Positions 114-41,579 of a stretch of DNA of 57,375 nucleotides are shown here, piece by piece. The notes below the pieces were generated by a model that did not search any database, was not told the origin of the DNA, and was given only the letters and a program-made list of their open reading frames with translations. The position numbers and the translations under genes were made by a program. Source of the DNA: a virus (taxonomy: Duplodnaviria; Caudoviricetes); IMG/VR virus record IMGVR_UViG_3300033150_001333, positions 1 through 57,375 of that record; one strand, written 5' to 3'. Every line of letters starts with the position of its first letter. Position 1 is the first letter of the stretch.

Positions 114-497
114 TCACCAGATATATTTACCTGCTATATCTACCAAAGCAAGAAACACATCATCCTTCACCTTTTCTCTTGGGTCTAATTTTTCATAGGG
201 AACAAGGTCTGGATGTATTTTCCTATCTGGGTCATAAACTTTGCCATACTTCCATCCCATTTCCTTATACTTTCTCATCCAAGAGTCATGAGCAGTTTTG
301 GGGTCAGAAAATGCCCGTTTCCCTGTAATTAAATCATCAACAAGCTCAATAAATTGTGATTTAAACTCACCTTCTCGTTCATTCCAAGGTTTAGGGATTA
401 CTGGGCAATTAAGCATCCTTGCATGTAGTCTTGCTCCTTCATAAACAAAGATTGCCCTACGAATTGCCTTACTCATTTCTAATGCATCTTTTTTCAT
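114..497 (-). CDS. RyR (ryanodine receptor repeat) domain protein
   Basis: HDSWMRKYKEMGWKYGKVYDPDRKIHPDLVPYEKLDPREKVKD fits the RyR pattern H..W....GW.YG...D...K.HP.LVPY..L...EK..D. Confidence 0.85.
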   Translation of the reverse strand: MKKDALEMSKAIRRAIFVYEGARLHARMLNCPVIPKPWNEREGEFKSQFIELVDDLITGKRAFSDPKTAHDSWMRKYKEMGWKYGKVYDPDRKIHPDLVPYEKLDPREKVKDDVFLALVDIAGKYIW

Positions 498-545
498 TTG
501 TTCCTCCTTATACTCGTTGTCTTAATTGCTTAACTTTTCTTGCAT

Positions 546-806
546 TCATTTTTTGTCCTCTCCAATTTTGTATTTTGGCTCAGTAATTTCCAACCCTCTT
601 TCAAGGCTAACTTCTATCCATGCCCTCTTTGCTTCTTGCAATCTTTTTAGAGCTTCTTCTCTAGTCTTGCCCTCAGCTCCACAACCAGGTAATTCAGGTA
701 TTTCTGCACCAAAATATTTCTCGCCATTGTATTCAGTGTATTTGAATATTCTGATAGTATAAGGCAAATTTAAATAATATTTTAAATCTTTCTTTAAAAC
801 TCCCAT
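546..806 (-). CDS. hicB: HicB-like antitoxin, N-terminal domain only
   Basis: AEIPELPGCGAEGKTREEALKRLQEAKRAWIEVSLERGLEITEP is the HicB signature; no C-terminal DNA-binding domain. Confidence 0.85.
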   Translation of the reverse strand: MGVLKKDLKYYLNLPYTIRIFKYTEYNGEKYFGAEIPELPGCGAEGKTREEALKRLQEAKRAWIEVSLERGLEITEPKYKIGEDKK

Positions 807-2719: not shown

Positions 2720-2872
2720 TTAGTCTTTGATTTTAAAATATTGCTTCAATGCCTGCCTTATTATATAGCTCCGATTGACATCTTTTTTCTCGCATTCTTT
2801 ATCAATCCTTACCAAATAATCAAGAGGTAAAGAAACAGTTACCGTGGTATTTCTTCCTCGTTGCATTTTCAT
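2720..2872 (-). CDS. Ribbon-helix-helix (CopG/Arc-like) regulator, 50 aa, not in ORF track
   Basis: MKMQRGRNTTVTVSLPLDYLVRIDKECEKKDVNRSYIIRQALKQYFKIKD; ATG overlaps upstream TGA (ATGA), GGAGG upstream. Confidence 0.8.
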   Translation of the reverse strand: MKMQRGRNTTVTVSLPLDYLVRIDKECEKKDVNRSYIIRQALKQYFKIKD

Positions 2873-6708: not shown

Positions 6709-6911
6709 TATTTACTCCTTTCATTATAAATTGAATATATTGTTTCAGGTGGGGTTGCAGTTGAATTTTGGCGTCCCATTAATGGACGAATAAGAATTTC
6801 AAACAAAGGAGCAAGCAGGGGCATTTCCTTTTTTAATTCTATCCATGCAGTGCTCTGTAAATTTCCTGAAGAAGATATTAGTTTTGCTATCTCTCTTTTA
6901 ATTTCTTTCAT
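6708..6911 (-). CDS. Hypothetical protein
   Basis: Overlaps end of initiator gene; GGAG SD. Confidence 0.55.
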   Translation of the reverse strand: MKEIKREIAKLISSSGNLQSTAWIELKKEMPLLAPLFEILIRPLMGRQNSTATPPETIYSIYNERSK

Positions 6912-8166
6912 AATTGTCTCCTTTGCTTAAACTTAAATAAGCCCTTCGGAGAAGCTTTAAATCTTGGATATATTCTGGGCAGTAGTTGTTGTTTTTTAAG
7001 GCTTCATTGTAACTAGCTTCGTTTGTAATATCTTTATAAACCTCGTGATGAAGCCATCTTAAAGCAGCTTCAAAAGCTATTTTGTAATCCATTTTGTCTC
7101 TTTCTTCTTCAGTAGTCGTCCAGACTTTTTCAGGTTTGGGATATTGAACGCCTGGCTTATCCTCCCACCGCCGTTGAGCAAGGAATGTGCTGGGATATAT
7201 AATATATTCTAGTTCCATATTAGGCCATTCATACTTTATGTAATTATCTAAGCCTTCCATTATTTGGTTAAATAAAGCTTCATCAGGATTTATTTTTAAC
7301 CACTCTGCTAAAGCTCCTACTTTGTTTACTTTTCTGGGATAGTTTAGCCAAAACTTCTCAAATAGAATTCGTTGCTTTTTAATATTTTGTAGTAGTAAAT
7401 TATCTGGTGGTTTATAGGGCGGAAAAGGTTGTTGTTTTTCTTTTCCACTGATGAATTCACTTTTCTTATTTGAATCTTTAGAGCTATATAGATTATTATT
7501 TATATATTTTTTATTATTTTCTTTAAAAGAGTTATTTAAAGAAGATTTTATATCTGTAGTATTCTTTGTAGTATTCTTTGTATTTGTCCTAACTTCAGGA
7601 GAAGGAGGTGGTAACTTTGAAGTAGGGGGGTGGTTACTTTGAAGTAAAGAGGTATTTACTTCGGAATTAGGAGGTGGTGATTCTGAAGTAGGAAGGTGGT
7701 TATCTTGAGGTAAAGAGGGGGTTTTTTTAGATTTGCGTTGGTCGTATGTAATTTTAAGGACATTGTCAATAATTGGTTCTATAAACATGACATTTGAAAG
7801 TTTTAAACCTTCGTTAGTTTCTATTGTTTTAAATTCTCTTTTAACAAGTTTTAATCTTATCAAATCATCAAAAGCTCTTTTAACCTGTATTTTTGTGAAA
7901 CCAAATAAATCCACATAAGACTGGTAATTCTTTTGTAATCTATCAGCTTTAAACTTTTGTCTATAACCAATTACTTCGCCTGTTTCTGGATTTCTTTCTT
8001 CAACTGGCCTATACCAAAAAACAATGTCCGCCAATAATGTTATAGCTACATGATTCACTGTTCCGTTTTGAGTTTTTATATATCTATACCAACTTAAGGG
8101 GACAGTATTACCAGAAAATTCAACGCCAATTAGTTTTTTACATTGTTCATTTATTTCATTTCTCAT
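6898..8166 (-). CDS. Phage replication initiator (lambda O/DnaD-type organisation)
   Basis: N-terminal wHTH-like domain (LLADIVFWYRP...KRAFDDLIRLKLVKRE), low-complexity linker carrying DNA iterons, C-terminal FEKFWLNYPRK...YPSTFLAQRRWED. Confidence 0.85.
   Translation of the reverse strand: MRNEINEQCKKLIGVEFSGNTVPLSWYRYIKTQNGTVNHVAITLLADIVFWYRPVEERNPETGEVIGYRQKFKADRLQKNYQSYVDLFGFTKIQVKRAFDDLIRLKLVKREFKTIETNEGLKLSNVMFIEPIIDNVLKITYDQRKSKKTPSLPQDNHLPTSESPPPNSEVNTSLLQSNHPPTSKLPPPSPEVRTNTKNTTKNTTDIKSSLNNSFKENNKKYINNNLYSSKDSNKKSEFISGKEKQQPFPPYKPPDNLLLQNIKKQRILFEKFWLNYPRKVNKVGALAEWLKINPDEALFNQIMEGLDNYIKYEWPNMELEYIIYPSTFLAQRRWEDKPGVQYPKPEKVWTTTEEERDKMDYKIAFEAALRWLHHEVYKDITNEASYNEALKNNNYCPEYIQDLKLLRRAYLSLSKGDNYERN
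7480..7722. promoter_or_regulatory. Putative replication origin: six tandem 22-bp iterons (7591-7722) next to an AT-rich tract
   Basis: aacttcaggagaaggaggtggt / aactttgaagtaggggggtggt / tactttgaagtaaagaggtatt / tacttcggaattaggaggtggt / gattctgaagtaggaaggtggt / tatcttgaggtaaagagggggt; period is not a multiple of 3, so it is a DNA-level repeat. Confidence 0.8.
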
Positions 8167-9005: not shown

Positions 9006-10253
9006 TTAAAATAATTCTTCTAATTCTTTTGCTTTGGTGTCAATCATCAAGTAGATTTCTGTAGCTTCCGCCTCATCCGAAATATCATAAATACTATTAT
9101 AACCCTTTTCTTTCAAAACCTCATTCACTAGTTCACGGTCATAATTTGACAATTGCTCTTCTAATTCCACAAGCCATTGTGCGGGAGGTTGAGCTTTCTT
9201 TTCTGGTTTAGCCTTTTTAGGTTTTGGAGGAGAAGTAGCAGGCTTATTCTTTGCTTCCCATTCCTTAAATTTTTCTACAAACCTATCTATTTTCTTTGTA
9301 GCTTTTTCTTTTACATATTCCATCGAGCAATTAACACTCTTTGCTACTGTTTCAATGTATTCTTCTACTCTTTCTTTATCTAATTTTTTTTTAGCAATCA
9401 CATCATCAAAAAATATTATTCGTTCAGGTTCAGGAGCTTGGTCTTCAATTTGTTTGGGTTTGTCGTCCTTTTTTTCTTTTCCAGCCTCCATATCCTTTAT
9501 ATCAATCACTTTACCTTGGAAAGTTACTTCTTCCTTTTTAGGTTCTTCTTCAATTGTAGACAATACAATGTCCTCTTCTTCCTCAGAAATTGCTATATCT
9601 AATTCAGGTGTTTTGCGTTTCATTTTAAGCATTTTCAAAACTGCACTCTTTCTCATCATAGCTTCAGGCCATAAATGCCAAGGACTATCTTTAGTTCCAG
9701 CTTGTTCAGCCTTTCTCCATGAAAGAGACATTTTTCTTCTTTTTTCAATTTCTTCCATTCTGATTATATCGAAATCCACTCTATCATCCTTTTTCCAAAG
9801 AGCGTAAGCACAAACAGCTTTCCCTCTGTCTTTTAATGCAATTTTATGGTGCAAATAAGCATCAGTGCCCAATTGATAATTAAACTCATCATTCTCATAA
9901 ACTACATGGGCTTCCACTTCAGCATCTGTTACTCTGTTTACCAACTCAATAAGACCTTGATAACCAATTTGGGCATTGCATTCTATTGGATGTCCTTGTT
10001 TTCTATTATTACGCCTAGGTATCAAATAAACATTATCTCCGCCTGGTAGTAATCCCCACTCTGCACATTTCAATAATGCACTGAGCAAACTTTCAGGAGT
10101 GCATTGTTGCAATTGAGGGTTTTTGAAAAGAGCGTTCCAAAAGGCTGCAATCAGGACATCTTTCTTCATTCCTTTAGGTAGCACTTTTAACTTCTCACTT
10201 GTTTCAGGAGAAACTAATTTGGCCTTGATTTCTGCTAGTTGATTTTTTTTCAT
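9006..10253 (-). CDS. recT: RecT-family single-strand annealing protein with long C-terminal extension
   Basis: NPQLQQCTPESLLSALLKCAEWGL...YLIP...QIGYQGLIEL...VVYENDEF...SPW...EAMMRKS. Confidence 0.92.
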   Translation of the reverse strand: MKKNQLAEIKAKLVSPETSEKLKVLPKGMKKDVLIAAFWNALFKNPQLQQCTPESLLSALLKCAEWGLLPGGDNVYLIPRRNNRKQGHPIECNAQIGYQGLIELVNRVTDAEVEAHVVYENDEFNYQLGTDAYLHHKIALKDRGKAVCAYALWKKDDRVDFDIIRMEEIEKRRKMSLSWRKAEQAGTKDSPWHLWPEAMMRKSAVLKMLKMKRKTPELDIAISEEEEDIVLSTIEEEPKKEEVTFQGKVIDIKDMEAGKEKKDDKPKQIEDQAPEPERIIFFDDVIAKKKLDKERVEEYIETVAKSVNCSMEYVKEKATKKIDRFVEKFKEWEAKNKPATSPPKPKKAKPEKKAQPPAQWLVELEEQLSNYDRELVNEVLKEKGYNSIYDISDEAEATEIYLMIDTKAKELEELF

Positions 10254-10660: not shown

Positions 10661-11335
10661 TCAAATCCTCCTTGTTGCTATTTCTACTTCTTGATATATT
10701 TCAAGGCCATCAATATTTCTTACTCCTGCCCTAATAGCTGCATTAACTTTTTTGTTATCTACCATTAAATATTCTTTTGGTATTTTGTCAAAGTCCACTA
10801 TTTTAAATGTCCAATATTTTCTTTCATATACAGTGCCATTGTCCGTGCTTACTTTTAATTTTTCTTTAGGCATAGCAATTTCAGGTAGCTTGACTGGTTC
10901 AATACCTTTTTCTTTAGCTTCCTTATCCAGTTGCTCTTGTAATTTTTTCCTTTCTTCTTCAGCTTTCTTTTCCATTTCTCTGCGTTCCATTTCAAGACGA
11001 GTTTTGTAATTTTTTAACTTCAATTTTACTATTTTCTTTGAATTAGAAAGAGGTTTAACTACTTCATTAACCCTAGCTTTCACCTTTTTTATAAATGTTT
11101 TAGGGACAATTATTCTTTTCTCACACTCTTCATTAATTCGTTTTTCGTATTTTGCTATTGTAGCCAATAGCTCAGCAGCCTTTTGGCAATTTTCTTCATT
11201 TGTTATTTCTAGCATCTTTACTTCTTTTTCTAACTGAGTAAATCTTTTCTTCCAAACCAAAAAGGCATTTTGTGCCTCTATTAAAGCTAAATTAGCCTTG
11301 AATTCCGTAAATACTCCATTACTTTTCTCCATCAT
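10661..11335 (-). CDS. Coiled-coil recombination-module protein (Gam/gp157-like)
   Basis: Long coiled coil then WTFKIVDFDKIPKEYLMVDNKKVNAAIRAGVRNIDGLEIYQE; lies between exonuclease and recT. Confidence 0.65.
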   Translation of the reverse strand: MMEKSNGVFTEFKANLALIEAQNAFLVWKKRFTQLEKEVKMLEITNEENCQKAAELLATIAKYEKRINEECEKRIIVPKTFIKKVKARVNEVVKPLSNSKKIVKLKLKNYKTRLEMERREMEKKAEEERKKLQEQLDKEAKEKGIEPVKLPEIAMPKEKLKVSTDNGTVYERKYWTFKIVDFDKIPKEYLMVDNKKVNAAIRAGVRNIDGLEIYQEVEIATRRI

Positions 11336-11682
11336 TTATCTCCTTTTAATAAATTTGGATTTTCCCATACATTTCCTATTACTTCTAAATCATACCAATT
11401 TATTATCTCGCTTGATAAATCCATATAACTGCTGGTTATGGGATTTTTTAAATAAAAAGAACCGTTCCCAAAGCTAACTATCCATTTATCATAAAAAGAA
11501 GATATAATATCTTCTTCATAAATTTCTTTGCCGTTTATATCGGTCAATCCAGTAAATAGCATAAGAATAACATTTTTATAAAAACAACCTTCTATACTTA
11601 TTTCTTGATGTTTTAACCATATAGCATCAGGGTATAACATTTTTCTATTCTTTTTATCCCAAGCCCTAACTTTAATCTGCAT
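11332..11682 (-). CDS. YopX-family protein
   Basis: IKVRAWDK...LMLFTGLTDINGKEIYEEDII...LEVIGNVWENPNLL. Confidence 0.9.
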   Translation of the reverse strand: MQIKVRAWDKKNRKMLYPDAIWLKHQEISIEGCFYKNVILMLFTGLTDINGKEIYEEDIISSFYDKWIVSFGNGSFYLKNPITSSYMDLSSEIINWYDLEVIGNVWENPNLLKGDK

Positions 11683-12196
11683 TTAAATACCTCCATCCAT
11701 TCAAAAAATTTAAAAATGCCTGAAAGCCCTTATTCAGGTCATCAATAAAAATAGTGTCAACAATAGCAGGTTTCCCGTCTTTTTTAAGCCTTACCGCCGC
11801 CACTTTATTAGGTTTCAATTCTTCAGGCAGAGCATAATAATAAGCACTTAACTGCATTATCCATGCCTTGTTAGCTACCTCAGAGGTTTTTAAATCCCAT
11901 AGCCATTTTTCACCTTTCCATTCAACCAACATATCTGGATGCCCGATGTAGCCAAACTGCTTATGTTTAACTTCAAATTCAGCCTTGATTAGTTTCACAG
12001 GTAACAAGTTTCTAAAGGATTGAATATATCCTTCCAACTCTCCATATTCAGGCACAAACAAATTTTCAAGTTCAGCTACACAATACTTATGAATTAGCTT
12101 GCCTCTTTCACAAGCTAGCTCTAGCGTATTGCTTGAAACAGGAAATTCTAGGAAAGGTGATATTACTTCTGTAACTCTGGGATAACGCATAATCAC
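11672..12196 (-). CDS. PD-(D/E)xK exonuclease (Cas4/RecB-like), RecT partner
   Basis: PRVTEVI...ERGKLIH...AEFEV...YIGHPD...WDLKTS...QLSAY. Confidence 0.85.
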   Translation of the reverse strand: MIMRYPRVTEVISPFLEFPVSSNTLELACERGKLIHKYCVAELENLFVPEYGELEGYIQSFRNLLPVKLIKAEFEVKHKQFGYIGHPDMLVEWKGEKWLWDLKTSEVANKAWIMQLSAYYYALPEELKPNKVAAVRLKKDGKPAIVDTIFIDDLNKGFQAFLNFLNGWRYLNAD

Positions 12197-14022: not shown

Positions 14023-14643
14023 CTAGCCTCCTTTTTCATCTAAGCAAACTAATAAACCTTTCATTTTTTGCTCCGTTATAGTGTTAACGACTTCAAACTT
14101 AATAAATTTGTTATATTCATCTTGATAAATAGAAATAGTAACGGGTTTATTTTTCTCATCATTAAATTTTTCAACTTGAGTGGCTATTTCTTTTAAGAGC
14201 TTTGCATTTACAGTTAGTGTTATAATTGGATTTTCTTTAGGATATGCTTTATCTGTATCAGGATATGAAATATCTTTGTTTTTTATGGACATTGTAAAGA
14301 CATTATCTAAATCTGTTGTTACCAAGATTGTCTTATCTTCTTTTTGAGATACCATGACATTTTCAAGAATAGGAAGAGGGCTTTTAGGGATTAACTTTCG
14401 AATTTTTGTTACTTCATTTTTGCTAAGATAGAAATCTCGCTCTTGTTTATATTCAAGCCCAGTTTCAGGATATTCCTCATAAGGTAAATTTGGCCTTGTT
14501 ACTTCTATTAATAAATACCTATCAGTAACAACTGTTTTTTCTTTAGTCACTTTAATAACTTGTGAAATATCAAAGTCATCTGAACTGTAATCACTTTCCT
14601 TTTCAAGTAAATTTGCTATTTGAAGATTGTATTTATTTAGCAT
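14023..14643 (-). CDS. Truncated DNA sliding clamp (DnaN)-like protein
   Basis: VVTDRYLL (cf. VATDGHRL), PLPILENVMV (cf. LPILSNVLL), TTDLD, YPDTDKAYP, VNAKLLKEI; 206 aa, shorter than three-domain DnaN. Confidence 0.65.
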   Translation of the reverse strand: MLNKYNLQIANLLEKESDYSSDDFDISQVIKVTKEKTVVTDRYLLIEVTRPNLPYEEYPETGLEYKQERDFYLSKNEVTKIRKLIPKSPLPILENVMVSQKEDKTILVTTDLDNVFTMSIKNKDISYPDTDKAYPKENPIITLTVNAKLLKEIATQVEKFNDEKNKPVTISIYQDEYNKFIKFEVVNTITEQKMKGLLVCLDEKGG

Positions 14644-14667: not shown

Positions 14668-15189
14668 TTATAAATAAAATTCTTTTCCCAAAACATACTG
14701 CAATGCTTCAGCAATATGGGTTGTCTTGATATTATCTTCTTTGTCTATTTCGCTAATAGTTTTAGCAACTCTTAAAGTTGTCTCTAATTCAGAAGGAAGC
14801 ATCCCTTTGGTTTTATATGCAGTTTCCAGAAGATTTAACCCTTCTTTATCTATTTTGCTTTTATCAAATTCAAGATACTCAAAGTTAAAGCAGTTAATTG
14901 CTGTAAAAGTCATATCCGTTTGAGGAAGATTTATTTGATACTTTTTAATTTCTTCTGGCGTGCATTTACATATTCTATTTGTGGAATTGAAGTTACCGCA
15001 AGGGCAAGGTTTTTTGACATAAATGATTTCTTCCAAAAGGTATCTTTGTTCTTCAGGAATGGTCTTTTTTAATCCGAATACTACTTGTTGAATGAAATAT
15101 ACATCACTCGTAATAATCAATAATGAATGTTTGCCATTTAAAGCAACATCTAAAACTCTTAAAAAATGTGGTGAATTAAATTTAATCAT
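14668..15189 (-). CDS. Miniature ComM/YifB (Mg-chelatase-like AAA+) homolog lacking ATPase motifs
   Basis: RVLDVALNGKHSLLII, PCPCG...CKCTPEEIKKY and LRVAKTISEIDKEDNIKTTHIAEALQY match ComM; P-loop replaced by TSDVYFIQ. Confidence 0.8.
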   Translation of the reverse strand: MIKFNSPHFLRVLDVALNGKHSLLIITSDVYFIQQVVFGLKKTIPEEQRYLLEEIIYVKKPCPCGNFNSTNRICKCTPEEIKKYQINLPQTDMTFTAINCFNFEYLEFDKSKIDKEGLNLLETAYKTKGMLPSELETTLRVAKTISEIDKEDNIKTTHIAEALQYVLGKEFYL

Positions 15190-15274
15190 TTTAGCCTCCT
15201 TTCTTAATCATTTATCCATTTACAAATAATCCATCCTGTTAACCAAAACGCTATTAAATAACCAAAAAAATCAA

Positions 15275-15701: not shown

Positions 15702-15741
15702 AAATAAAAAAGCCCGATGCTCCATAAAGGAACACCGAGCC
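15702..15741 (-). terminator. Intrinsic terminator in the early operon
   Basis: GCTCGGTGTTCC-TTTAT-GGAGCATCGGGC followed by TTTTTATTTT. Confidence 0.7.
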
Positions 15742-15771
15742 TAAATTTTTAGGGTGGGTGCTTAATTATTC

Positions 15772-15960
15772 TTATAAATCAACTTCTGAATGCTTCCCGC
15801 AATACTCTTTTTCCATTTCCTCCCATTTTTGTTTTTCTTTATAATAGCAATCTTCACAAAGTCCGTGTGCCCATTCTGCTTGAGGTGGAAAAATCCTTCC
15901 ACATCTTTTACAAGTAAAAGTTTCTTCTTCCCATCCTATTTCTTCTTTTTCTTTTGTCAT
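15772..15960 (-). CDS. Small Zn-finger protein
   Basis: CKRCG...GLCEDCY; strong SD. Confidence 0.7.
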   Translation of the reverse strand: MTKEKEEIGWEEETFTCKRCGRIFPPQAEWAHGLCEDCYYKEKQKWEEMEKEYCGKHSEVDL

Positions 15961-15987
15961 TTACTTTACCTCCTTTCTCTTAAATTC

Positions 15988-16404
15988 TTAGATATTCAAC
16001 GCTTCTTTTATTTTTGCTATTTTCTCTGCTTCAGTTTCAAATGTTTTCATTTTTGAGATATTTTCAAGAAACTCTTCAAGTGCGACGCTGGCATCCTTTA
16101 TATTGATATATGTCAGTTCAATAATATATACAGGCACAACTCAATCTGATATTTCAATCACCGCTTTACCATTTCTCAAGGCGAAATTAGCCTCCCCACC
16201 ACAATTATTATGCCAATTATGTCCATCCCAGTAGTCATATTTAACAATGAATTTCTGCTTTGTATCATATCCTGTTACAGCATCAGGCACTTGCTTAGAC
16301 ACCCAATCCAATATTGCTTGGATATCTTCTTTAGCCTTTTTGGTTGCTCTTTCCCTTCTTTTCATTCTTTCAATTATCCCTGTAATTCTTTCTATTTCTT
16401 GCAT
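15988..16404 (-). pseudogene. Early gene with in-frame TGA at 16141-16143
   Basis: Frame stays open for 50 more codons (VVPVYII...LEEFLENISKMKTFETEAEKIAKIKEALNI*) up to the next SD. Confidence 0.55.
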
Positions 16405-16419
16405 TGTTACTTACCTCCT

Positions 16420-17628
16420 TTAAATAAATTTAGCTAAATTATTTACTTCTTTGGCAAAAGGTGAAAATAAAGGCGGTTTATAAGGTCTTTTTCTACACCA
16501 AATGTCAATTATGGCCTTAGCTAATAAATAGTTGTCTTCTAGCATGTCATTTGAACAAGCTCCGCTATTTAGTGCTTGCTGAGCCATTTCATACATTGTT
16601 TGTTTAGAGTTTTCTAGCATTTCATTTATTTGCTCTTTAACTTGTTTGAGTTTTTGTTCTTCAGTCATTTTTACTTACCTCCTTTCTTTATATAGTATTA
16701 TTTAATGCATTTTTAATAGCTTGTATCTTGCCTCTTTCATAATCATTGTAAGGTTTATGCTTTACAACTTTCTTTAAAATATTCATAGATGCTCTTTTAG
16801 CGATTTGACAGCCATGATAATACCCCAATTTATACGTTTTTTCCCCATCGTTGTTTGTTACAAACTCTCCATTATGATAATAGCCTTTTCCTATATAATG
16901 TTTACCATTTTGATACATCGTTACTCCTCTCCTTTCTTCAAAATTTTCTCCGTCACCCGCTCAGTACCAATAAGATGCCGACGGAGAGTAGTTATTTCAG
17001 CCTGCAATTTGGCAAGGCATTGAGGGCAAATTCCATGTGTTACGCCCGTGCCTTGCTTTTGCCCTATTACCTTTTTGCACCAAGCACAGATGATAGTCAT
17101 AGTATCACCTCCCTTCAAAATATTCCTTTTCACAATGCCTAGAGCAGAAAACTAAATGCAAATCCGTTTCAAAAGCACGCCGTATTTTTACGGGATAGCG
17201 TGCTTTCTTTTCATAGCAATTAGAACAAACATCAGGATAGTTTCCCTTTTTGAGCCAGTCCCGATGAGGATGAAATACTTCCCAGTTTTCAGGATATTTG
17301 ATTTTCATTTTATCACCTCCTTTTTTTATTTCAACGGGATAACTATCCCGTCATACCGCCAGTATTTCAATTTATCTTTGTCAGAATGCAAACAAAGAGG
17401 CATTCCTCTAGGGTCTGAGCAAATATCAACATGAAGTCCCCATTTCTTGGCTATTTCCTTAACTTTCTTTTCAAGTTTTATTACTCTTTTTTCTTGTCTA
17501 GGAGTTAGGCCGTAATTGCAATGCTGTGTGTATAGATTGTGTAGAGAGCGAGCCAACCTTTTCAATTCTTCATAATCTGCTAGAAACTCTTTTAAATCCT
17601 CAATGTTTTTGATGTTTTTCATTTTCAA
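16420..17628 (-). CDS. Cluster of five small early genes (16420-16668, 16688-16918, 16921-17100, 17105-17308, 17326-17628)
   Basis: Closely packed with strong GGAGG(T) SDs; two carry CxxC Zn-finger motifs (CAWCKK...HGICPQC; CSNC...FCSRHC). Confidence 0.7.
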
Positions 17629-17799: not shown

Positions 17800-17829
17800 A
17801 TTTTAGCATAATTAAATTTTGTTTGTCAA
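17800..17829 (-). promoter_or_regulatory. Early sigma70-like promoter
   Basis: TTGACA-18 bp-TAAAAT with extended TG, upstream of the first minus-strand gene. Confidence 0.7.
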
Positions 17830-19225: not shown

Positions 19226-20230
19226 ATGGCAGATTGGAAACCTGGGAGTTCAATGTATGCAAAGAGGTATGCCACATCTACCTTTATTGAATATAAGACT
19301 GGTATTTGGTGGGACAAGCATGGATATGTGGGGAAGGATGAGAACAATGTAATACAGTTAATAGAGGATTTCACGAGGGAACCTGGTAATAGTATGAGGT
19401 TTTATTTGACTATGGTGCCTGAAGGAGACCCGATTGTTGATGATGATACCTTAGAAGGCAACGAGATGAATATTACCAATTACTATCAGGACGTAACGCT
19501 TCATGAGTATCGTGGTGGTATTCGTCTTTATGGTAATATGGAAGAGAAGGCGGTTGCCTTTAATATGAGGGAGACAGCGAGGAGAGTATTAGGAATTTGG
19601 AAGAGGCAGGAAACGGGTGATGCTATATTTAGTGCATTAGCCAGTTCTCCGACCAAGGTTATATATGGTGGGGATGCTACTTCTACTTCTACTTTAGAGT
19701 CTAGTGATTTATGCAATCTTAAGCTTTTATTGCATGCTGCTACTTATGCGGAAAGTGTAGCTGACCCTCGTATTCCTCCGTTAATAATAGATGGTGAGGA
19801 GAAGTATATAGTTATTTTGCACAAGCATTGTTTATCTGATATGCAGTTATATGATAGTGATTTTCGTGCATTAGGGCAGAGTGTATATCAGAGAAATAGT
19901 GATAATCCTTTGATTAAGAGGGCTGCTTTTGTTTACAATAATCTTATTGTTTATTCTACTGATAAGATACCCACTGCTGATAATTGGGGTTCTGGCGGTG
20001 ATGTTCATGGAGCTACCAATTTATTGCTTGGTGCTCAAGCAGCTCTTTTAGGTAGGGGCAAGACCAAAGGTGGAGTTATTCCTCAATTTGATTGGAGAGA
20101 GCAGACTTGGGATTATGGGCATAAATATGGTATTGCTGTTGGTGAAACCAGAGCATTAGCCAAGACTGTTTTTAATTCCAAGGACTTTTCTACTGTAGCT
20201 ATTAGGACTGCTGCTAATAGTTATGCTTAA
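19226..20230 (+). CDS. Major capsid protein, N4-gp56/DUF4043 type
   Basis: IQLIEDFTREPGNSMRF...TLEGNE...FNMRETAR...NPL...LLLGAQA...EQTWDYGHKYGIAV...KTVFNSKDF. Confidence 0.9.
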   Translation: MADWKPGSSMYAKRYATSTFIEYKTGIWWDKHGYVGKDENNVIQLIEDFTREPGNSMRFYLTMVPEGDPIVDDDTLEGNEMNITNYYQDVTLHEYRGGIRLYGNMEEKAVAFNMRETARRVLGIWKRQETGDAIFSALASSPTKVIYGGDATSTSTLESSDLCNLKLLLHAATYAESVADPRIPPLIIDGEEKYIVILHKHCLSDMQLYDSDFRALGQSVYQRNSDNPLIKRAAFVYNNLIVYSTDKIPTADNWGSGGDVHGATNLLLGAQAALLGRGKTKGGVIPQFDWREQTWDYGHKYGIAVGETRALAKTVFNSKDFSTVAIRTAANSYA

Positions 20231-32852: not shown

Positions 32853-35800
32853 ATGCCATTAACCCCAGTTGACTATGACCCTTTTAAAGAAGAAAAACAA
32901 TCTTCAAAAAAATTAACAAAAAAACAAAAAGCAAAATTAGTTCCCGTTGATTATGACCCTTTTGCTTCTGAAAAAAAGCAACCAGAAATCAGTGCTGAAA
33001 AAGGTATCCCACAATACCTCATCCCTTTTAGTAAATACCTAGGTATAGAACCAACTTATGTAAAACCAGGCTCATTTCTTGGTAATTTATTGGCTGTGCC
33101 TCATGCCTTTTTTGAAGCTGGAACGACTGCATTTGAAAGCCCTTATTATATTTTAAAAGGGCTAGGGAAAATATTACGATTACCTTCTTTAGAAAAAGCT
33201 GGCGAATGGGGGATTAAAGGACTTGAACCTACAAGAAGACATCATGAATTAATGCGTAAACAATTATATGTGCCACCTACTTCACCAACAGCACGATTAG
33301 CCCATTCCATTAGTAAAAAAGTAGCAGAAGCAATAGGAAGTTTTGCCCGTCCTGATTTGCCTGTTTTAGTAGCTAGTCCTACAGCTTATGGTTTTCTTAG
33401 TGGATTAGAAACATTAGGAGCAGGAGCTCCACCTACACAAGCTTTAACAGCAGGCATACATGGAATGATAGCAGGTAAAACTTTTGAAGCTGTTAGAGGA
33501 TTAAGTCCTATGCAGGCACTTACTAGAGCCGGGGCTGTTGGAGCTACACCTGAAGTTGCAAGAGGTCTTATTACTGGTAAACCAGAGCAAATTGGTAAAG
33601 GAATAGAGGAAGGACTAAGCCTTGGTATATTTTCTGCATTGGCTACAATAAAAACTCCCTTAGCAAGAGAAATATATAGAAATAAAGTAAAAGCAGGCGT
33701 TCCAAGAGAAAAAGCATTACAAACAGCCTCTTTAGTAGAAGAAACAATTAAATCCTTAGATATTGATAAAGCTAAAAGTCTACCTCTTAAAGAAAAAGAA
33801 ATACAAAAAGTAGAGAAAATCATTAGGGAGATAAGTAAACAAATAGAAGATTTACCAGAAGTTATAAAAGGTAAACGGGGATATAAGACAGAGAAAGGAG
33901 CTAAAATAGGGTTAAGATTGTTTGCTAAAGAAAATAAATTACCAAAAGATATGGATTTAACCCAACATTACAATTTAGAGAAGGACGAAGCAGGTAATTT
34001 TGTTTGGAGAAAGATAACTGAAAAGCCAACGGAAATTAAACCTGCAATTAAACCTAAAGAAGAAGTAAAGCCTCCAGAGGTAGAAATTCCTAAAGAAGAA
34101 AAACCTCCAGCAAAAGAAATCAAAGAAAAGGTTGAAGAAAAGCCTAAGAAAGCCAAACCTTATGAAAGCGTTGAACCTGGCAGTGCAGAATGGATGAAAA
34201 TCTGGAAAGAGCATCCAGAGCTACAAAAGGAGATGGCTGAGATACGCCAGAAACAAATAGTTGAGGAAGGTAAGAAAGAAGAAGCTTTACCAGAGGCTAA
34301 ACCTGAAAAAGAACCTCCCAAAGAAAAACCTCCAGTAGTGCCTTTAACTAAGACACTTTATGAAAATTCCTATCCCATTGAATTAAGTAAGGCCAGTGAG
34401 GTGTTTCCTAAACATAGACTTGGCGTTGATTATGTAGTTAAGCTGGTGGATAAAAATACAGGTAAGGTTACTTGGGCTAGTTTAAGTGAGAAAAGGGCAA
34501 GAGAGTTATTTCCACGGTCTTTTGAAGAAAAGGCTAAGGAAGTTCCTAAAGCAGAAGCTGAATGGCAACCTGTAAAGGATTACAGCAAAGAAATAACTGA
34601 AGGAACTCATGTCAAATGGAAATATAAAGGCAAAGAGGGTGAAGGAATAGCCACAGGCAAGACAGGAAGGCGTAAGACAGGATTTGTTTATCATAAAGTT
34701 AAAACTCCAGAAGGCAAAACAAAATATATGCCTTGGACACCTAAAGCAGAATATTGGATTAAGGCAGAGAAAAAAGTTAAACCTGTTAAAGAAACAAAGG
34801 CAGAGGTTAAAGAAAAAGAACCTATAATAGCTATTTCTAAACGTGAACCTAATTTACAATTTGAAATTGACCGTATAGAAGGAAATAAATTTATTGTAAA
34901 ACGTCCTGTTATTATAAGCACATTGAAAGGAGAAGAAGGGAAAATAGTAGAAACACCTGATAAATATTTAATAGGGCGAGAATATCCCGTTGAGAATTTT
35001 AGATTTGTAACACCCAAAGAATATGTAGCAGAAGTAAAAACAAAAGAAGCAAAAATAAAAGCAGAAAGAGAAGCACAAAGGGAAACAGAACGAAAAAAAC
35101 AGGAAGAAATTAAACAAGCACTTAAAGCCAAGCCAGTTACAGATAAGTATTATATTTATTTAAAGGACAAAGGTTTTGAGGAAGTTGAGAAAGCCTATCC
35201 TGTTAAAATCTCAGGGTTTGAAAAGTATGATTTATTTGCCCATAAGGTAGGTAAAAAATGGAAAGTTTCTGAAAGTAAAACTGGTGTTGCTATAACAAAA
35301 GCCCTTCCAACCCGTAAAGAAGCAATAAAACAAGCTACTGAAATTTTAAATAGGCATAAAGAAAAATCTGATGAAATGATAGAAGATGCTATAGCCTATG
35401 CGTTATCTCAGACAGGAATTTCTCCACGATATAAGCCTATTTCTAAAGAACCTACAATAACTCAACCCAAAGAAAATTTATATGAAGTGCGTCATCCAGA
35501 GAAAAAGACATGGTATCAAATCAAAGAAGACCCAGAAACAGAGCAATGGAGAGTTATAAAGTTTGAGCCTTATGAAACTATACATGAAGGACAAAAAGTA
35601 ACTGTTAATAAAGCTACTGAAACAAAGTTTTTTAAAACTTTAGAAGAAGCAAAAGATTTTGCTCAAAAAGGAATTATAGGCAAGCCAGTAGAAGTAAAAA
35701 TAAGTTCTTTTGTAAAAGATGCTTATCTGGAAGAATATGGCAAAGAAAAAGGCACACAAGAATTATCAAATTTAAAAAATAAAGTTCAAAAAGCATGGGA

Positions 35801-38800
35801 TATTTTAAAAAAGAAATATCCTCAATATGCTAATAAAATTACTTCAATTACTATTCATAGAATGTCCCCAGAAGATATAGCATTAGGTGGTGTTTCTTCT
35901 ATTGGTAAGAAAGGAGATGTTATTGTTGACCCAACTCATGCTAAAACAGAGCCTATGGAAACGCTTGCTCATGAAATGTTACATGCAACAGGAGCTACTG
36001 AAAAAGAAGCTCGTGCTTTTGAAAAAACTATATCTAAAGAAACTAAATTTTATTCTGGTATCCCTATTGATGAAATAGTTAAAACAGTCAATGAAACAAC
36101 TAAGAAGGTTGTTGATTATATTAAACAAAAAAAGATTGAAAAAGTTGATAAAGCAGAAATAGAACATACAGATAGATTTCTTTCTTTTTATGCTAAACAA
36201 ATACCTAAAGTATTAACTAGACTATATGAAAAAGAACACCTCAAAACAGCTCATCCAGAAACTGTTTATAGAGAGGCTTTAGGTGAATTACCTACTACTA
36301 TGCCTGAAAAAGTTAAAAAGCCAATAGTTAATGCTTTGGATGCTTCAAGAGAACACGATTATAAGCTTAGTGGTTATGAAATAAAAGTTAAAGAAAAATT
36401 ATTAGGTAGTTACAATGCTATTTATAAAATATATGGCAAAAAAGGAATAAAAAGATTTTTTGATTTACTTTCTGCTGAAGCACATAAACGCCATGCAATT
36501 AGTGAAAAACAGTTAAAAGAATTACCACCTGAGTTTCAATTAGCTTATAAAAGAACAAAAGAATATTTATTAAACCCATTAAAAGAATATATGAAGTTTT
36601 TAGAAGAAAAATATCCTGAAGGATATAAAACAGAAGAAATGGCTAAAAAAGCATTAGCTGAAGTTGCAGAAAAGAAACAAATAGAAAATATAGAAAGCTT
36701 ATATACTTTAAAACAAAATAAAGCCAACCTATTTTATTGGGAGAAAAACCCTAATGCTGAAAAAATAGCTAAAAAGAAATTACCTCAAATTATTACAAAA
36801 TGGAATAAAGAATATCAAAAAGTAAAAGAGTTATTAAAACAGGCAGAAAAAGATTATTTTTATCAACCTACTGTTAGAACTCATGAAGATATTATCCTTG
36901 TTCTTAAAAAACCTAAAAAAGAAGGTGCTAAATCTACCGTTGTAGGAGCTTTTGAATTCCCTAATGAAAGGAAAGCTAAACAACAATACAATAGAATGCT
37001 TAAAGGTGATTATACAGCTATTCTTAATTGGTTTAGACGGGTAGGAGATTTAGAAGCTGGAAGAGATTTTGTAAATAACATTAAAAAGGGTGATTATACA
37101 TTAAAGCTTATCAAATTTAAAACAGAGCCTACTTATACTCCTGAAGATATACCTCTACAAAGTGTAATGGGCATTTTATCTAAATACAAAGGGAAACAAA
37201 TCAAAGCTAAAAATCTTCAGGCTAAAGCTATTGCTGAAGATATACAGCGGTTTATTGAGAAGTTTGTTAATCCTATTAGTGTTAAAAGTTTTCATTTAGA
37301 AAAGAAGAATATCCCTGGATGGAGCTTAGACCCTCTTGATAGAAATGATATTTTACTTAGAAGGGTGCTTTCTGAAAAATCTCTTATTGAGAAATTAAAA
37401 CTTTCTGATGTTATAACTAATTCTTTTGCTCAAATAGACCCAGAACAACATCCACAATATTATAAATGGCTTTCTGATTTTAATAAATATATGATGACGC
37501 CTAGAGAACCTGAAACTACTCGCCGTATTCTTTCTGCTTGGAGTATGTGGGGCAATGCAATGTCTGTTATAGCTAATGCTACTCAGTCTTATATTTTAGG
37601 CCCCGCTGTAATAATAGAAAATAAATTAAATCCTGCTAAGTTTTTAAAATATGAAACTGAGTATTTAAGAAAGTATATTGAAAGTGATTACGATAGTAAA
37701 GACTTAGCTTATCTTGAATGGGGAAAGAAAAACGGTGTATTTGCTCCTACAGCATGGAAAGAAGCTATGCTTGGTTTAACGGGAGAGAGAGGAGGAGTAA
37801 TACCCAAGATAGAAGATATAGGTTATGCGGGATTTACTTTTGTTGAGTCTGTTAAAAACAGAATGAATACTTTTCTCTCTGTAGCTAAAATGCTTGAAGA
37901 AAAAGGAATGCCTTTTGAAGAAGCTATGAAAAAAGCTCGTGATATTACTTTTGATATTCATTTTGATATGAATAAATGGAATACGTTGATTAGAAAGAAA
38001 TATCCTAGATTATTTCAAACCTTAATGAGTTTTACATTTCATTCCTTTAAAACATTAAGAAGACTTATTTTTAAATCTTTTCCTTCTGCTAGAGAAAGAA
38101 AATATGCTATAGGTGCATTAGCTACTTTTTATTTAACTCATTTTTTAGTTGGCGGAATGGCAGCTACTCCAGGCGGAGAACTTTTCTGGCAGATGGTTGA
38201 TATTCCCTTTAAAAAAGTTTTTAGGCAATCTATAAAGACTTATTTAATGAATGAATTTTCTGATAAAGAACGCAAAAAATTACGTTTGTTCATACAATAT
38301 GGATTGTTGGGATTGGCAGGATTACCAAGTGTAGCAGATAGAATTGGATTTGGTTATAGAGAAGTAAGTAAACTTAATAATTTTATAGCAGATGCAATGG
38401 CTCATTTAGCTCCTATTCCAGTAATGGTTGCTAATCAAGCTGTTAAAGCTATTAGAATGACGCAAAAGGGATATTCTTGGCCGACTGCTATTTCTCAACA
38501 ATTCTCTCCTACCGTTGTAAGGAATATTTCTAGAACGCTGTATGCAATTAAAAAAGGTTATTTGCCAACATCCTATGGTAAACCTCTGCAAGATATATAT
38601 GGTAATAACTTTGTGCCTACTGGATTAGAAGAAATTGCTATGTCTTTTATTGGTGCAATTCCACCTGAACAACAAGAGATTTATGAAATTAAAGAAGCTC
38701 AAAGAAAAAAAGAAGATATAAGATTGGCTCACTTACACGATATTACTAATGATATAGTATTAGGATACCTTGATAAAGATTATGCACGAATAGGAAGAGG

Positions 38801-39080
38801 GTTTGCAAAATGGACAAAATATAATAAAGAAATAATTAAAAAGATAATTAAGGCAAAAAAAGAGAAAAGAAATGATTTAGCTCGCTTCTGGTCAACTCAG
38901 TTAATAGAGCAAAAAGCAGTTGAAACATCTATTAGAAATAGATTAGGAAGACATGAAAGTGCACCAAATTTGTTAATGATGAGCTGGTGGAAAAAAGGAC
39001 AAAAAGGTTATGAAGAAGCTGTTAAAGTTATTCTCTTAAGGGAATATTTACGCAGGCTTAAACAAAGGTTAAGGAGGTAA
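32853..39080 (+). CDS. Giant ejection/polyvalent protein with zincin HExxH motif
   Basis: 2075 aa; twin PVDYDPF motifs, Lys/Glu/Pro linkers, TLAHEMLHA, helical C-terminal half with hydrophobic segments. Confidence 0.75.
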   Translation: MPLTPVDYDPFKEEKQSSKKLTKKQKAKLVPVDYDPFASEKKQPEISAEKGIPQYLIPFSKYLGIEPTYVKPGSFLGNLLAVPHAFFEAGTTAFESPYYILKGLGKILRLPSLEKAGEWGIKGLEPTRRHHELMRKQLYVPPTSPTARLAHSISKKVAEAIGSFARPDLPVLVASPTAYGFLSGLETLGAGAPPTQALTAGIHGMIAGKTFEAVRGLSPMQALTRAGAVGATPEVARGLITGKPEQIGKGIEEGLSLGIFSALATIKTPLAREIYRNKVKAGVPREKALQTASLVEETIKSLDIDKAKSLPLKEKEIQKVEKIIREISKQIEDLPEVIKGKRGYKTEKGAKIGLRLFAKENKLPKDMDLTQHYNLEKDEAGNFVWRKITEKPTEIKPAIKPKEEVKPPEVEIPKEEKPPAKEIKEKVEEKPKKAKPYESVEPGSAEWMKIWKEHPELQKEMAEIRQKQIVEEGKKEEALPEAKPEKEPPKEKPPVVPLTKTLYENSYPIELSKASEVFPKHRLGVDYVVKLVDKNTGKVTWASLSEKRARELFPRSFEEKAKEVPKAEAEWQPVKDYSKEITEGTHVKWKYKGKEGEGIATGKTGRRKTGFVYHKVKTPEGKTKYMPWTPKAEYWIKAEKKVKPVKETKAEVKEKEPIIAISKREPNLQFEIDRIEGNKFIVKRPVIISTLKGEEGKIVETPDKYLIGREYPVENFRFVTPKEYVAEVKTKEAKIKAEREAQRETERKKQEEIKQALKAKPVTDKYYIYLKDKGFEEVEKAYPVKISGFEKYDLFAHKVGKKWKVSESKTGVAITKALPTRKEAIKQATEILNRHKEKSDEMIEDAIAYALSQTGISPRYKPISKEPTITQPKENLYEVRHPEKKTWYQIKEDPETEQWRVIKFEPYETIHEGQKVTVNKATETKFFKTLEEAKDFAQKGIIGKPVEVKISSFVKDAYLEEYGKEKGTQELSNLKNKVQKAWDILKKKYPQYANKITSITIHRMSPEDIALGGVSSIGKKGDVIVDPTHAKTEPMETLAHEMLHATGATEKEARAFEKTISKETKFYSGIPIDEIVKTVNETTKKVVDYIKQKKIEKVDKAEIEHTDRFLSFYAKQIPKVLTRLYEKEHLKTAHPETVYREALGELPTTMPEKVKKPIVNALDASREHDYKLSGYEIKVKEKLLGSYNAIYKIYGKKGIKRFFDLLSAEAHKRHAISEKQLKELPPEFQLAYKRTKEYLLNPLKEYMKFLEEKYPEGYKTEEMAKKALAEVAEKKQIENIESLYTLKQNKANLFYWEKNPNAEKIAKKKLPQIITKWNKEYQKVKELLKQAEKDYFYQPTVRTHEDIILVLKKPKKEGAKSTVVGAFEFPNERKAKQQYNRMLKGDYTAILNWFRRVGDLEAGRDFVNNIKKGDYTLKLIKFKTEPTYTPEDIPLQSVMGILSKYKGKQIKAKNLQAKAIAEDIQRFIEKFVNPISVKSFHLEKKNIPGWSLDPLDRNDILLRRVLSEKSLIEKLKLSDVITNSFAQIDPEQHPQYYKWLSDFNKYMMTPREPETTRRILSAWSMWGNAMSVIANATQSYILGPAVIIENKLNPAKFLKYETEYLRKYIESDYDSKDLAYLEWGKKNGVFAPTAWKEAMLGLTGERGGVIPKIEDIGYAGFTFVESVKNRMNTFLSVAKMLEEKGMPFEEAMKKARDITFDIHFDMNKWNTLIRKKYPRLFQTLMSFTFHSFKTLRRLIFKSFPSARERKYAIGALATFYLTHFLVGGMAATPGGELFWQMVDIPFKKVFRQSIKTYLMNEFSDKERKKLRLFIQYGLLGLAGLPSVADRIGFGYREVSKLNNFIADAMAHLAPIPVMVANQAVKAIRMTQKGYSWPTAISQQFSPTVVRNISRTLYAIKKGYLPTSYGKPLQDIYGNNFVPTGLEEIAMSFIGAIPPEQQEIYEIKEAQRKKEDIRLAHLHDITNDIVLGYLDKDYARIGRGFAKWTKYNKEIIKKIIKAKKEKRNDLARFWSTQLIEQKAVETSIRNRLGRHESAPNLLMMSWWKKGQKGYEEAVKVILLREYLRRLKQRLRR

Positions 39081-40297: not shown

Positions 40298-41579
40298 GCT
40301 ACCCCTTTTTTACGGAAGGGGCTTTATCAGTGAGGAATAATCCTCCTGATTTAGGGCAGGCTTACAAACTGCCCAGCCCAAGAAGGAACTTTTGCCTTCA
40401 AGGGCAAAGATAGCAAGATTTTTGGAGGCATTGTAATCAGCATGGACTTGATAGCCACAAGCCTTACAACAAAAAACAGAACCATTACGATTAGAAGATT
40501 GAATATGGCCACACTTACTACATCTTTGAGAACTGTATTTAGGGTCAACAAACCAAACATCAATACCCTCTTCAAGTGCTTTGTATTGAATATAATTTGG
40601 GAGTTTAGAAAATGCCCAGAGAGAAACTTTATGTTTTTCAGCTTTTCTCCATTTTTTTACACTTCCTCTAATACTATTAAGATTTTCCATAGCAATTACT
40701 TGAGCACCAATCCTTTTTGCCTTCTCAACAATTTGCCGAGAAATATTATGCAAAACCCAGTTAACAAAGCGGTTTTCTCGCCCACTCATTCTCTTAAGCA
40801 AGAGATGGGCAGAGCGAGTGCCTTTCTTTTGGATTTTGCTTCTCCGTTCGGCAAACTGTCTTCTTTTATCATTAAGCATTCCTGCTTTAAAAAATTTGCC
40901 TATAGAGGTTACAGCAATATTCTTAACTCCCAAATCAACTCCCATAACAGTTTCAGGTTTTCTAACAAGAGCGGGTTTAATTATTGTAATATTAAGAAAG
41001 AAATCTTTGCCATTATAAGAAAGTGTAGCAGTCCTAAATTCATAATTTGTATTATCAAGTATTTTCTTTTGATAATCTCCAAGAAGATATTTGGCTTTTA
41101 CTCTACCATTTACAGTAGAAAAAGTGCATTCTCTATTTTTAATAGTTACAGTTCTTTTATCAAGTTGAATTGCAGAAAAAGGCCTGAAGGTTGGTTTAGT
41201 TGCTTTTCTCTTTTTACTCCAATTGATAACACAAAGTTTAACCGCATCACAAGCTTTATTCCGAGCAGAACATATCAAATTAGCTTGAAGATTGGTTTGC
41301 TTTTTAAGTGGATAGTAAACAAGTTTATGGAGTTTAGATTTATTGATTATCTTCTTTTCAGGCTTCCATGCTTCATTTATGCAAAAATTAAGAGCAAAAT
41401 TATATTGTCTAAAAGTTTCAAGAACATCTTGCTTTCTTTCTTGTGGAATATCCAGTTTTACTTTACAAGTCTTGATTATTTTTCTCATCGTGGTAAAATT
41501 ATATCATGTTTATCTGAAATGTCAAGAAAGGAGTAAAAAGGCAATTCCTCCCCACCCTTACGGATGGGGTCTCCTTGCC
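40294..41579 (-). mobile_element. IS200/IS605-family tnpB-only insertion sequence
   Basis: Left-end hairpin GGCAATTCCTCCCCACCCTTACGGATGGGGTCTCCTTGCC (41540-41579); right end AAAGCCCCTTCCGTAAAAAAGGGGTAGCTTAC; no tnpA; opposite to the host operon. Confidence 0.85.
40310..41488 (-). CDS. tnpB: TnpB RNA-guided endonuclease
   Basis: RuvC-I GVDLG, RuvC-II AMENL, Zn finger CSKCG...CKACG, RuvC-III HADYNAS; promoter TTGACA-16-TATAAT at 41525-41498. Confidence 0.95.
   Translation of the reverse strand: MRKIIKTCKVKLDIPQERKQDVLETFRQYNFALNFCINEAWKPEKKIINKSKLHKLVYYPLKKQTNLQANLICSARNKACDAVKLCVINWSKKRKATKPTFRPFSAIQLDKRTVTIKNRECTFSTVNGRVKAKYLLGDYQKKILDNTNYEFRTATLSYNGKDFFLNITIIKPALVRKPETVMGVDLGVKNIAVTSIGKFFKAGMLNDKRRQFAERRSKIQKKGTRSAHLLLKRMSGRENRFVNWVLHNISRQIVEKAKRIGAQVIAMENLNSIRGSVKKWRKAEKHKVSLWAFSKLPNYIQYKALEEGIDVWFVDPKYSSQRCSKCGHIQSSNRNGSVFCCKACGYQVHADYNASKNLAIFALEGKSSFLGWAVCKPALNQEDYSSLIKPLP

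Follow-up and report, generated by a model that had tools for sequence, protein, structure and literature searches.

The 173-residue protein considered here, which we call mini-ComM, is encoded on the minus strand of a tailed-phage genome of 57,375 bp (the whole IMG/VR virus record IMGVR_UViG_3300033150_001333, referred to below as the window), and its closest described relative is the ComM/YifB helicase (Protein Data Bank (PDB) entries 8rxd and 8rxt). With ComM it shares the a0–b1 motif, an embedded four-cysteine (C4) zinc finger with the helix that follows it, and the terminal lid helices. It differs in being about one-third as long, in lacking the Lon-like domain, Walker A and Walker B, the helix-2 insert, the pre-sensor-1 hairpin, sensor 1, and the trans-acting arginines, and in having a modeled lid that would sit in the classical AAA+ position rather than in that seen in ComM. 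A looser likeness is to the clamp-loader subunits delta and delta-prime (HolA and HolB), catalytically inert AAA+ modules that act by binding only, as this AAA+-derived protein may do. In the published accounts, ComM is monomeric and forms a hexamer only with ATP and DNA (PMC6158740; PMC11612176). RadA/Sms also carries a C4 finger on a recombination helicase, and that finger is described as needed for RecA interaction and oriented loading (PMC5512693). This last comparison is an analogy only: the RadA finger is N-terminal, whereas that of ComM is embedded, and the two are not homologous in position.

Descent and anatomy of mini-ComM

An initial annotation of this DNA had described the open reading frame (ORF) as a miniature, catalytically stripped ComM/YifB. 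The ORF (173 residues plus stop) and all of the strings quoted for it are present, with an intact frame and a good Shine-Dalgarno sequence, and the proposed similarity emerges clearly from hidden Markov model searches. Pfam Mg_chelatase_C (PF13335; E 2.6e-8, 34.8 bits, cut-off 26) matches residues 112–165 over profile positions 40–93 of 94, and Pfam Mg_chelatase (E 3.4e-6, 27 bits, cut-off 20.3) matches residues 55–88 over positions 152–185 of 207. The only convincing PDB sequence match is Legionella ComM (8rxd, E 8.7e-6). When the mini-ComM family was aligned by hhalign with 17 full-length ComMs, residues 49–167 matched consensus positions 353–519 with a probability of 99.9% and E 3.7e-36. 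This alignment, together with a continuous series of intermediates described below, establishes the protein as a ComM/YifB derivative by descent from a ComM ancestor.

It is nevertheless not ComM as the whole-protein families define it. TIGR00368 (YifB) matches with E 3.2e-10 but at 39.2 bits, well under the family cut-off of 362.4, and NF007365 gives 17.5 bits against a cut-off of 530; by these models the protein falls below the ComM/YifB cut-off, having the finger and the lid and lacking the motor. The Lon-like N-domain gave no family match, and mini-ComM begins at helix a0 of the AAA+ module. No PHROGs family was found for it (best E 0.09), none of the defense or anti-defense families in PADLOC-DB matched at E ≤ 0.01, and profile libraries including Pfam and PHROGs revealed neither a helix-turn-helix nor any other DNA-binding family. 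The parts of the gene and protein, with structural elements from an AlphaFold2 model, are as follows.

15195–15200 (-), Shine-Dalgarno AGGAGG, 5 nucleotides upstream of the ATG, read from the sequence
14668–15189 (-), mini-ComM coding sequence, supported by both Pfam domains, hhalign, and AlphaFold2
15109–15177 (-), residues 5–27, helix a0 and strand b1, matching GQxxAKRALEIAAAGGHNLLLIG of ComM, from alignment (modeled helix 7–19, strand 23–27)
15025–15108 (-), residues 28–55, the one-time P-loop with helix a1 (TSDVYFIQ...), followed by a variable helix that bridges the deletion (modeled helices 30–43 and 46–55)
14959–15024 (-), residues 56–77, strand b4 and C4 zinc finger CPCG-x8-CKC, from alignment (modeled strand 56–59, finger loop 60–77)
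14899–14958 (-), residues 78–97, helix a4 (TPEEIKKYQ) and strand b5 (modeled helix 78–86, strand 93–97)
14848–14898 (-), residues 98–114, short linker in place of about 50 residues, from hhalign and alignment
14689–14847 (-), residues 115–167, last three lid helices (LLETAY..., LRVAKTISEI, HIAEALQY; modeled helices 115–127, 132–148, and 156–167)
14671–14688 (-), residues 168–173, C-terminal tail ...GKEFYL, with KEFYL in all 21 close relatives

To map the protein onto ComM, the alignment was bridged through intermediate forms (class B, below), and it bears out each of the motif losses named in the initial annotation. The Walker A position, GPPGxGKT in ComM, is occupied by TSDVYFIQ, and about 110 residues are deleted that hold Walker B, the helix-2 insert, sensor 3, and the pre-sensor-1 hairpin (in Legionella ComM, E302, 281–289, R316, and 324–336, respectively; PMC11612176). 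The sensor-1 asparagine has become Lys60. The arginine segment SGPLLDRID has shrunk to P-QTDM, placing Gln90 at the arginine position, and the LSxR motif reads LPSE, with Ser133 in place of the sensor-2/trans arginine; this arginine is R463 of Legionella ComM and is described as touching the ATP of the neighboring subunit (PMC11612176). A second deletion, of about 50 residues after b5, has taken the first lid helices, and the pore loops are gone as well. What is kept is kept closely. The finger cysteines are C62, C64, C74, and C76, the lid motif VARTIADL reads VAKTISEI, and HIAEALQY is unchanged.

The model, built from 66 sequences, is a single compact domain with a predicted local distance difference test score (pLDDT) of 94.7 and a predicted template modeling score of 0.86; the pLDDT drops to 66 at the tail (residues 168–173). 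Relative to the five-stranded AAA+ core, the retained core has three strands (b5-b1-b4) together with a0, a1, and a4. The AAA+ sheet has the order 5-1-4-3-2, in which b5, b1, and b4 neighbor each other, so the retained strands are contiguous, and the deletion therefore takes off the edge of the sheet and the pore side of the subunit. Residues 108–171 superpose on 8rxd 438–500 with a root mean square deviation of 2.0–2.2 Å over 63 residues. ComM and MCM chains superpose on the model by the lid only, and the modeled lid packs on its own core in the classical AAA+ position, unlike the lid of ComM. Foldseek found no match in the PDB at E ≤ 0.001, the weak rows being nearly all AAA+ proteins, and a fold search of BFVD likewise gave none at E ≤ 0.001.

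Because the ATP-binding, ATP-hydrolyzing, and pore-lining parts have been removed, mini-ComM cannot be a motor. It is a non-enzymatic AAA+ derivative that can neither bind nor hydrolyze ATP and can line no DNA pore, and it probably works by binding.

Family, selection, and distribution

A word-indexed search returned 49 proteins, 21 of them 63–100% identical to mini-ComM and mostly 159–180 residues long, and an exhaustive search of 1.84 billion representatives returned 825 at E ≤ 1e-3, 32 of them at E ≤ 1e-10; the total includes full-length ComMs. Among 196 proteins sorted, 94 were short and without Walker A (class A, to which the window protein belongs), 26 were short with an intact Walker A and 26–58 residues between Walker A and the finger (class B), and 19 were full-length. 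Setting aside three N-terminally cut fragments of full-length proteins reduced class A to 91, a figure that may still hold further fragments, such as P0029 and P0154, which group with full-length proteins in the tree. Class B proteins are viral, about 190–245 residues long, and automatically annotated as "Mg chelatase" (on viral contigs L108 and L114, for example); they have the same two deletions and no Lon domain, and they differ from mini-ComM in retaining Walker A, in some members the LSxR arginine, and the first lid helix, so that they may still bind nucleotide. The column census over these three sets was as follows.

Walker A Lys: class A 0/91, class B 26/26, full-length 17/19
Walker B Asp column a gap: class A 85/91, class B 20/26, full-length 1/19
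Sensor-1 Asn: class A 0/91, class B 0/26, full-length 18/19
LDRID Arg: class A 12/91, class B 5/26, full-length 16/19
LSxR Arg: class A 8/91, class B 11/26, full-length 17/19
Arg of KRALE (R11 in mini-ComM): class A 88/91, class B 26/26, full-length 19/19
His of GGHN: class A 61/91, class B 26/26, full-length 19/19
Glu of HIAEALQY: class A 88/91, class B 26/26, full-length 19/19
Tyr of HIAEALQY: class A 85/91, class B 26/26, full-length 18/19

The four finger cysteines are invariant across 119 aligned proteins (74/74 class A, 26/26 class B, and 19/19 full-length). Only V15, I26, N66, and L120 are flagged as specific to the minis; nearly all other conserved positions are also conserved in ComM, which argues for retention of ComM's own core and surfaces over evolution of a new site. 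The spacing from Walker A to the finger runs from 26 to 135 residues as a near-continuum in 58 of 59 proteins, with one outlier at 178. The proteins form a graded series, from full-length through Lon-less and P-loop-only class B to fully stripped class A. A tree of 119 proteins over 166 columns has weak support (12 of 116 branches starred); in it class B lies nearer to the full-length proteins and class A falls in several groups. Counting the origins of the minis from this tree was dropped because branch support is insufficient. Separately, the best-scoring full-length relative, P0095 (507 residues), has both Walker motifs degenerate (no GK[ST], and NC for DE) and is apparently a full-length but inactive ComM homologue.

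The initial annotation had further argued that the gene reflects selected miniaturization and not decay, and that homologs would lose the catalytic residues while keeping the cysteine motif and lid under constraint. Both expectations hold, with the qualification that class B keeps Walker A. The ratio of nonsynonymous to synonymous substitution rates (dN/dS) is 0.10–0.30 in all 10 pairs from five phages. These ratios, the conservation of the family, and the confident compact fold are why we regard the gene as kept by selection. The opposite idea, a decaying fragment without function, could point to the loss of every catalytic motif, but it is hardly credible against these ratios, the intact frame and Shine-Dalgarno sequence, and dozens of divergent relatives with the same architecture.

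The family is mostly viral, large, and conserved. Of the ESM-Atlas clusters, the three closest (133, 94, and 142 members of about 200 residues with Mg_chelatase domains), which correspond to class B mini-ComMs, are 83%, 65%, and 83% viral, counted among the members with a record. Cultured phages in INPHARED yielded no mini-ComM, only two weak matches with lengths that look full-length. In species-representative genomes, the best 80 of 272 relatives included no class A mini and no prophage copy of the close family: 69 were ORFs of at least 400 residues (full-length ComM), 10 were shorter (at least five of them cut by contig ends), and one had no qualifying ORF. The literature searched, of limited coverage, contained no description of a phage-encoded truncated ComM.

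Genomic setting

The window has an estimated completeness of 99% by CheckV, no end repeats, and a G+C content of 33%. Pfam and PHROGs matches identify it as a tailed phage by its portal, capsid, adaptor, terminase, and endolysin genes; no polymerase, helicase, or integrase was detected among the window proteins in either library. The mini-ComM gene belongs to a leftward block, made up largely of small genes, that extends from about 17.8 kb to the left end of the window. The main features are listed here, by Pfam and PHROGs except where another basis is given.

6898–8166, leftward block, replication-initiation protein
9006–10253, leftward block, RecT
10661–11335 and 11672–12196, leftward block, two exonuclease-like genes
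leftward block, YopX
14023–14643 (-), remote homologue of the beta sliding clamp, 206 residues, about half size, directly downstream of mini-ComM, from profile searches
17800–17829 (-, read 17829 to 17800), best promoter-like site, TTGACA-18-TAAAAT with a TG, a consensus match only, 11/12
19226–20230, major capsid protein
47763–49451 (-), large terminase
49545–51461, P22-like portal
53245–53781, Amidase_3 endolysin
in the window, SU10-type adaptor

Placement of the gene in an early region, as originally proposed, is plausible from this arrangement. The promoter-like site is directed leftward about 2.6 kb upstream of mini-ComM, and the scanned region holds no more such sites than expected from shuffled sequence. 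At 15710–15742 (-), some 520 bp upstream of where mini-ComM starts, lies a terminator-like hairpin (14 pairs, then a T-run); because it falls inside the block, the block may comprise more than one transcription unit.

Other genes of the block and of the window can be noted in passing. Small ORFs of 62, 70, and 67 residues upstream of mini-ComM, at 15772–17308 (-), carry paired CxxC motifs and look zinc-ribbon-like. At the far end of the block, at 114–806 (-) and 2720–2872 (-), are an RyR-domain protein, a HicB-like antitoxin, and a CopG-type ribbon-helix-helix protein; no HicA toxin was noted. In the structural region, a 2075-residue ORF (32853–39080 (+)) has no Pfam or PHROG match. Adjacent enoyl-CoA-hydratase-like and PAPS-reductase-like genes occupy 45900–47092 (+); another PAPS-reductase-like gene lies near mini-ComM in viral locus L129. 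A TnpB/IS605 OrfB (Cas12f-like) gene sits at 40310–41488 (-), on the opposite strand within the rightward block.

Genes that might bear on the host point in different directions. The closest portal matches are from Pseudomonas and Aeromonas phages, at only 23–24% identity; the named TnpB relatives are mixed, from metagenome-assembled genomes of archaea and bacteria (Bathyarchaeota, Thermococcus, WS2, and Omnitrophota, 65–72% identity); and the nearest named endolysin relatives are from Clostridia, at about 48%. No tRNA that might help to place the host was found in the genome.

Two subfamily alignments were used to gather related loci, and 25 viral loci were compared (the window and 24 others, with Pfam run on 139 of 157 neighboring ORFs of at least 100 residues). 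In these loci mini-ComM shares its strand with arrays of small genes. Its neighbors include a RecA/KaiC-like ATPase in L007 and L096, with RadC directly downstream in the former; a DUF2800 nuclease, Enc34 SSB, PolA, and VapE primase in L008; SNF2 helicases in L091 and L126; a ligase in L107; a DprA-like SLOG protein in L125; ArdA in L124; DNA methylases in L114 and L127; and a full-length beta clamp about 2.5 kb from mini-ComM in L128. By gene content, these neighborhoods would serve DNA metabolism and establishment functions. No neighboring family is common beyond close relatives in the 25 loci, except for the clamp-like gene, which occurs in three.

That gene is the 206-residue downstream neighbor in the window. 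It matches Pfam DNA_pol3_beta with E 2.7e-4, under the cut-off, and phrog_947 with E 1e-5, and when a three-sequence profile was run against the PDB, 12 of 13 matches were beta clamps (best E 7.5e-5, over clamp residues of about 192–306). It adjoins mini-ComM here and in L002, where the copy is apparently split across two frames, and lies two genes away in the distant L096 (L096:3891-4499). The finding extends to L133/L135 as well. Of five records searched, two have the gene. A relative with a CheckV completeness of 100% carries mini-ComM (69% identity) and lacks the clamp-like gene, as do two others, at 15% and 82% completeness. We rejected it as an obligate partner because of its absence from the complete relative. 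The GKEFYL tail of mini-ComM, an aromatic-hydrophobic C-terminal peptide, is found in all 21 close relatives and is absent from distant members of the family; its occurrence beside a clamp-like gene raises, as an idea only, the possibility of a clamp-binding motif.

Possible modes of action

A decoy role in the ComM pathway, in some form, is possible, and several mechanisms could be at work. In the one that we favor, two internal deletions and loss of the Lon-like domain have stripped everything that binds or hydrolyzes ATP or lines the DNA pore, as sequence and alignment show, and in the model the remnant (the b5-b1-b4 core, a0, a1, and a4, the C4 finger, and the last three lid helices) folds as one compact domain. 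The protein would be made from the small-gene block beside the RecT/exonuclease module, probably early, and would act stoichiometrically, by binding. It may mimic the outer face of a ComM subunit and thereby occupy a partner whose docking site is the lid or the zinc finger of ComM, the candidates being the DprA winged helix or the nuclease YraN. A ComM-type motor of the host would in this way be denied access to three-strand recombination intermediates on phage DNA. We put forward this decoy of the ComM docking face, titrating a ComM partner or finger ligand, as a tentative possibility.

The choice of partners comes from published work. The winged helix at the C terminus of DprA is described as binding ComM, in a contact that the ComM-Vc substitution L455E abolishes and R497E weakens (PMC12012524), and a two-hybrid assay is described in which YraN binds ComM (PMC13663708). 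Positions 455 and 497 of a ComM of roughly 500 residues lie in the terminal lid. Provided that the numbering of the Vibrio and Legionella proteins is in register, as the Walker A lysine at 224 in both suggests, they fall approximately within 438–500, that is, mini-ComM residues 108–171. The DprA winged helix is a candidate because these contact residues lie in the retained lid.

Several points weigh against this reading. The mapping of L455 and R497, made by residue numbering, is approximate. The arginine of "QYR", a possible R497 equivalent, is Val166 in mini-ComM and is arginine in only 41 of 74 class A proteins. Gram-positive DprA is described as having no winged helix (PMC12012524), and the endolysin relatives are from Clostridia, so that DprA may not be the target here. 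The genomic context is generic for early and replication regions of phages. The overall charge is neutral (isoelectric point 6.3, class A median 7.0) and is uninformative about DNA binding. Finally, the same data would accommodate a positive accessory role.

That accessory role survives best among the alternatives, although we consider it unlikely. Mini-ComM would then be a zinc-finger and lid adaptor that aids phage recombination or replication, for example by recruiting a protein to RecT intermediates. The gene is always found in replication/recombination neighborhoods, with varied recombinases and related functions (RecT here, the RecA-like ATPases of L007 and L096, and the exonuclease, SSB, and PolA of L008), and the RadA finger discussed above (PMC5512693) indicates that fingers can recruit. 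Yet there is no conserved partner gene, the clamp-like gene being present in only 3 of 25 loci, and a RecA–ComM interaction went undetected by two-hybrid (PMC13663708). For the latter reason we demoted the idea, drawn from RadA, that the retained finger binds RecA.

More doubtful is a role outside the ComM pathway altogether, in which the ComM scaffold would carry a zinc-finger regulator that binds nucleic acid and acts, for example, in early transcription or translation. The small size of the protein would suit such a role, as would its place in an early-looking block with many other small CxxC proteins, and the finger with the helix after it is mildly basic (net +3, class A median +2). Against this, the finger has the same features as that of ComM (CPCG[NY]xGDPx[KR]xCxC[TS]P), conservation spans a0 and the lid as well, beyond what a DNA-binding finger would need, and the profile searches described above detected no DNA-binding family.

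The dominant-negative subunit of the initial annotation, a mini-ComM that stalls the host ComM ring by entering or capping the hexamer, appears to us a little more doubtful again, and less likely than a decoy acting through a docking partner. In its favor, the protein has a ring subunit as its homologue and retains part of each lateral face (a0-b1-a1 with the lid on one, a4-b5 on the other), and class B retains elements useful only at a subunit interface (an intact P-loop in 26/26, LSxR in 11/26, LDRID in 5/26). But in class A the P-loop and both trans-acting arginines that form the ATP-bridged interface are gone, ComM hexamerizes only with ATP and DNA (PMC6158740; PMC11612176), and the modeled lid is oriented differently from that of ComM. 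Co-assembly with ComM is most plausible for class B members, which have the P-loop and some trans arginines.

The proposal also draws on the fact that comM genes are known targets of mobile elements. As a separate observation, four provirus-type contigs (L117, L119, L120, and L121) match, in their last 500 bp or so, only the finger-to-C-terminus part of ComM, as would fit prophages integrated in or beside comM. The biological rationale first offered, that ring poisoning blocks transformation-mediated removal of the phage, fits poorly with a window that has no integrase and with the lack of prophage copies among the best 80 of 272 relatives.

Pairing of mini-ComM with the half-size beta-clamp-like protein, in a clamp-associated or clamp-loader-like module, is very improbable: the genes are adjacent here and in L002, two apart in L096, and a full-length clamp lies nearby in L128, but 22 of 25 loci have no clamp-like gene, a complete relative lacks it, and the L002 copy is apparently split.

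Returning to the decoy of the ComM docking face, one can imagine it in a broader form. Mini-ComMs as a class could be widespread decoys that titrate the recruiter of ComM (the DprA winged helix, YraN, or a zinc-finger ligand) and so switch off a host branch-migration pathway that might undo recombination or replication intermediates of the phage; in this phage, the clamp-like neighbor would suggest truncated host ring proteins as a strategy. We regard this generalization as unlikely, somewhat more so than the accessory role.

The finding has meaning beyond the choice among these mechanisms. Neither the zinc finger of ComM, which is not resolved in the cryo-electron microscopy structures (PMC11612176), nor its conserved terminal lid motif has an assigned role. 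The 20-kDa mini-ComM isolates finger and lid together, under selection in many phages, and thus offers a small, soluble-looking probe of what they bind. The graded series is a natural example of an AAA+ motor whittled down through loss of edge strands b2 and b3 and of the first helices of the lid. Should mini-ComM turn out to inhibit the ComM pathway or to hijack it, it would stand as the first phage factor directed against the ComM helicase, and ComM/YifB, whose role outside competence is unassigned, would by implication matter during phage infection.

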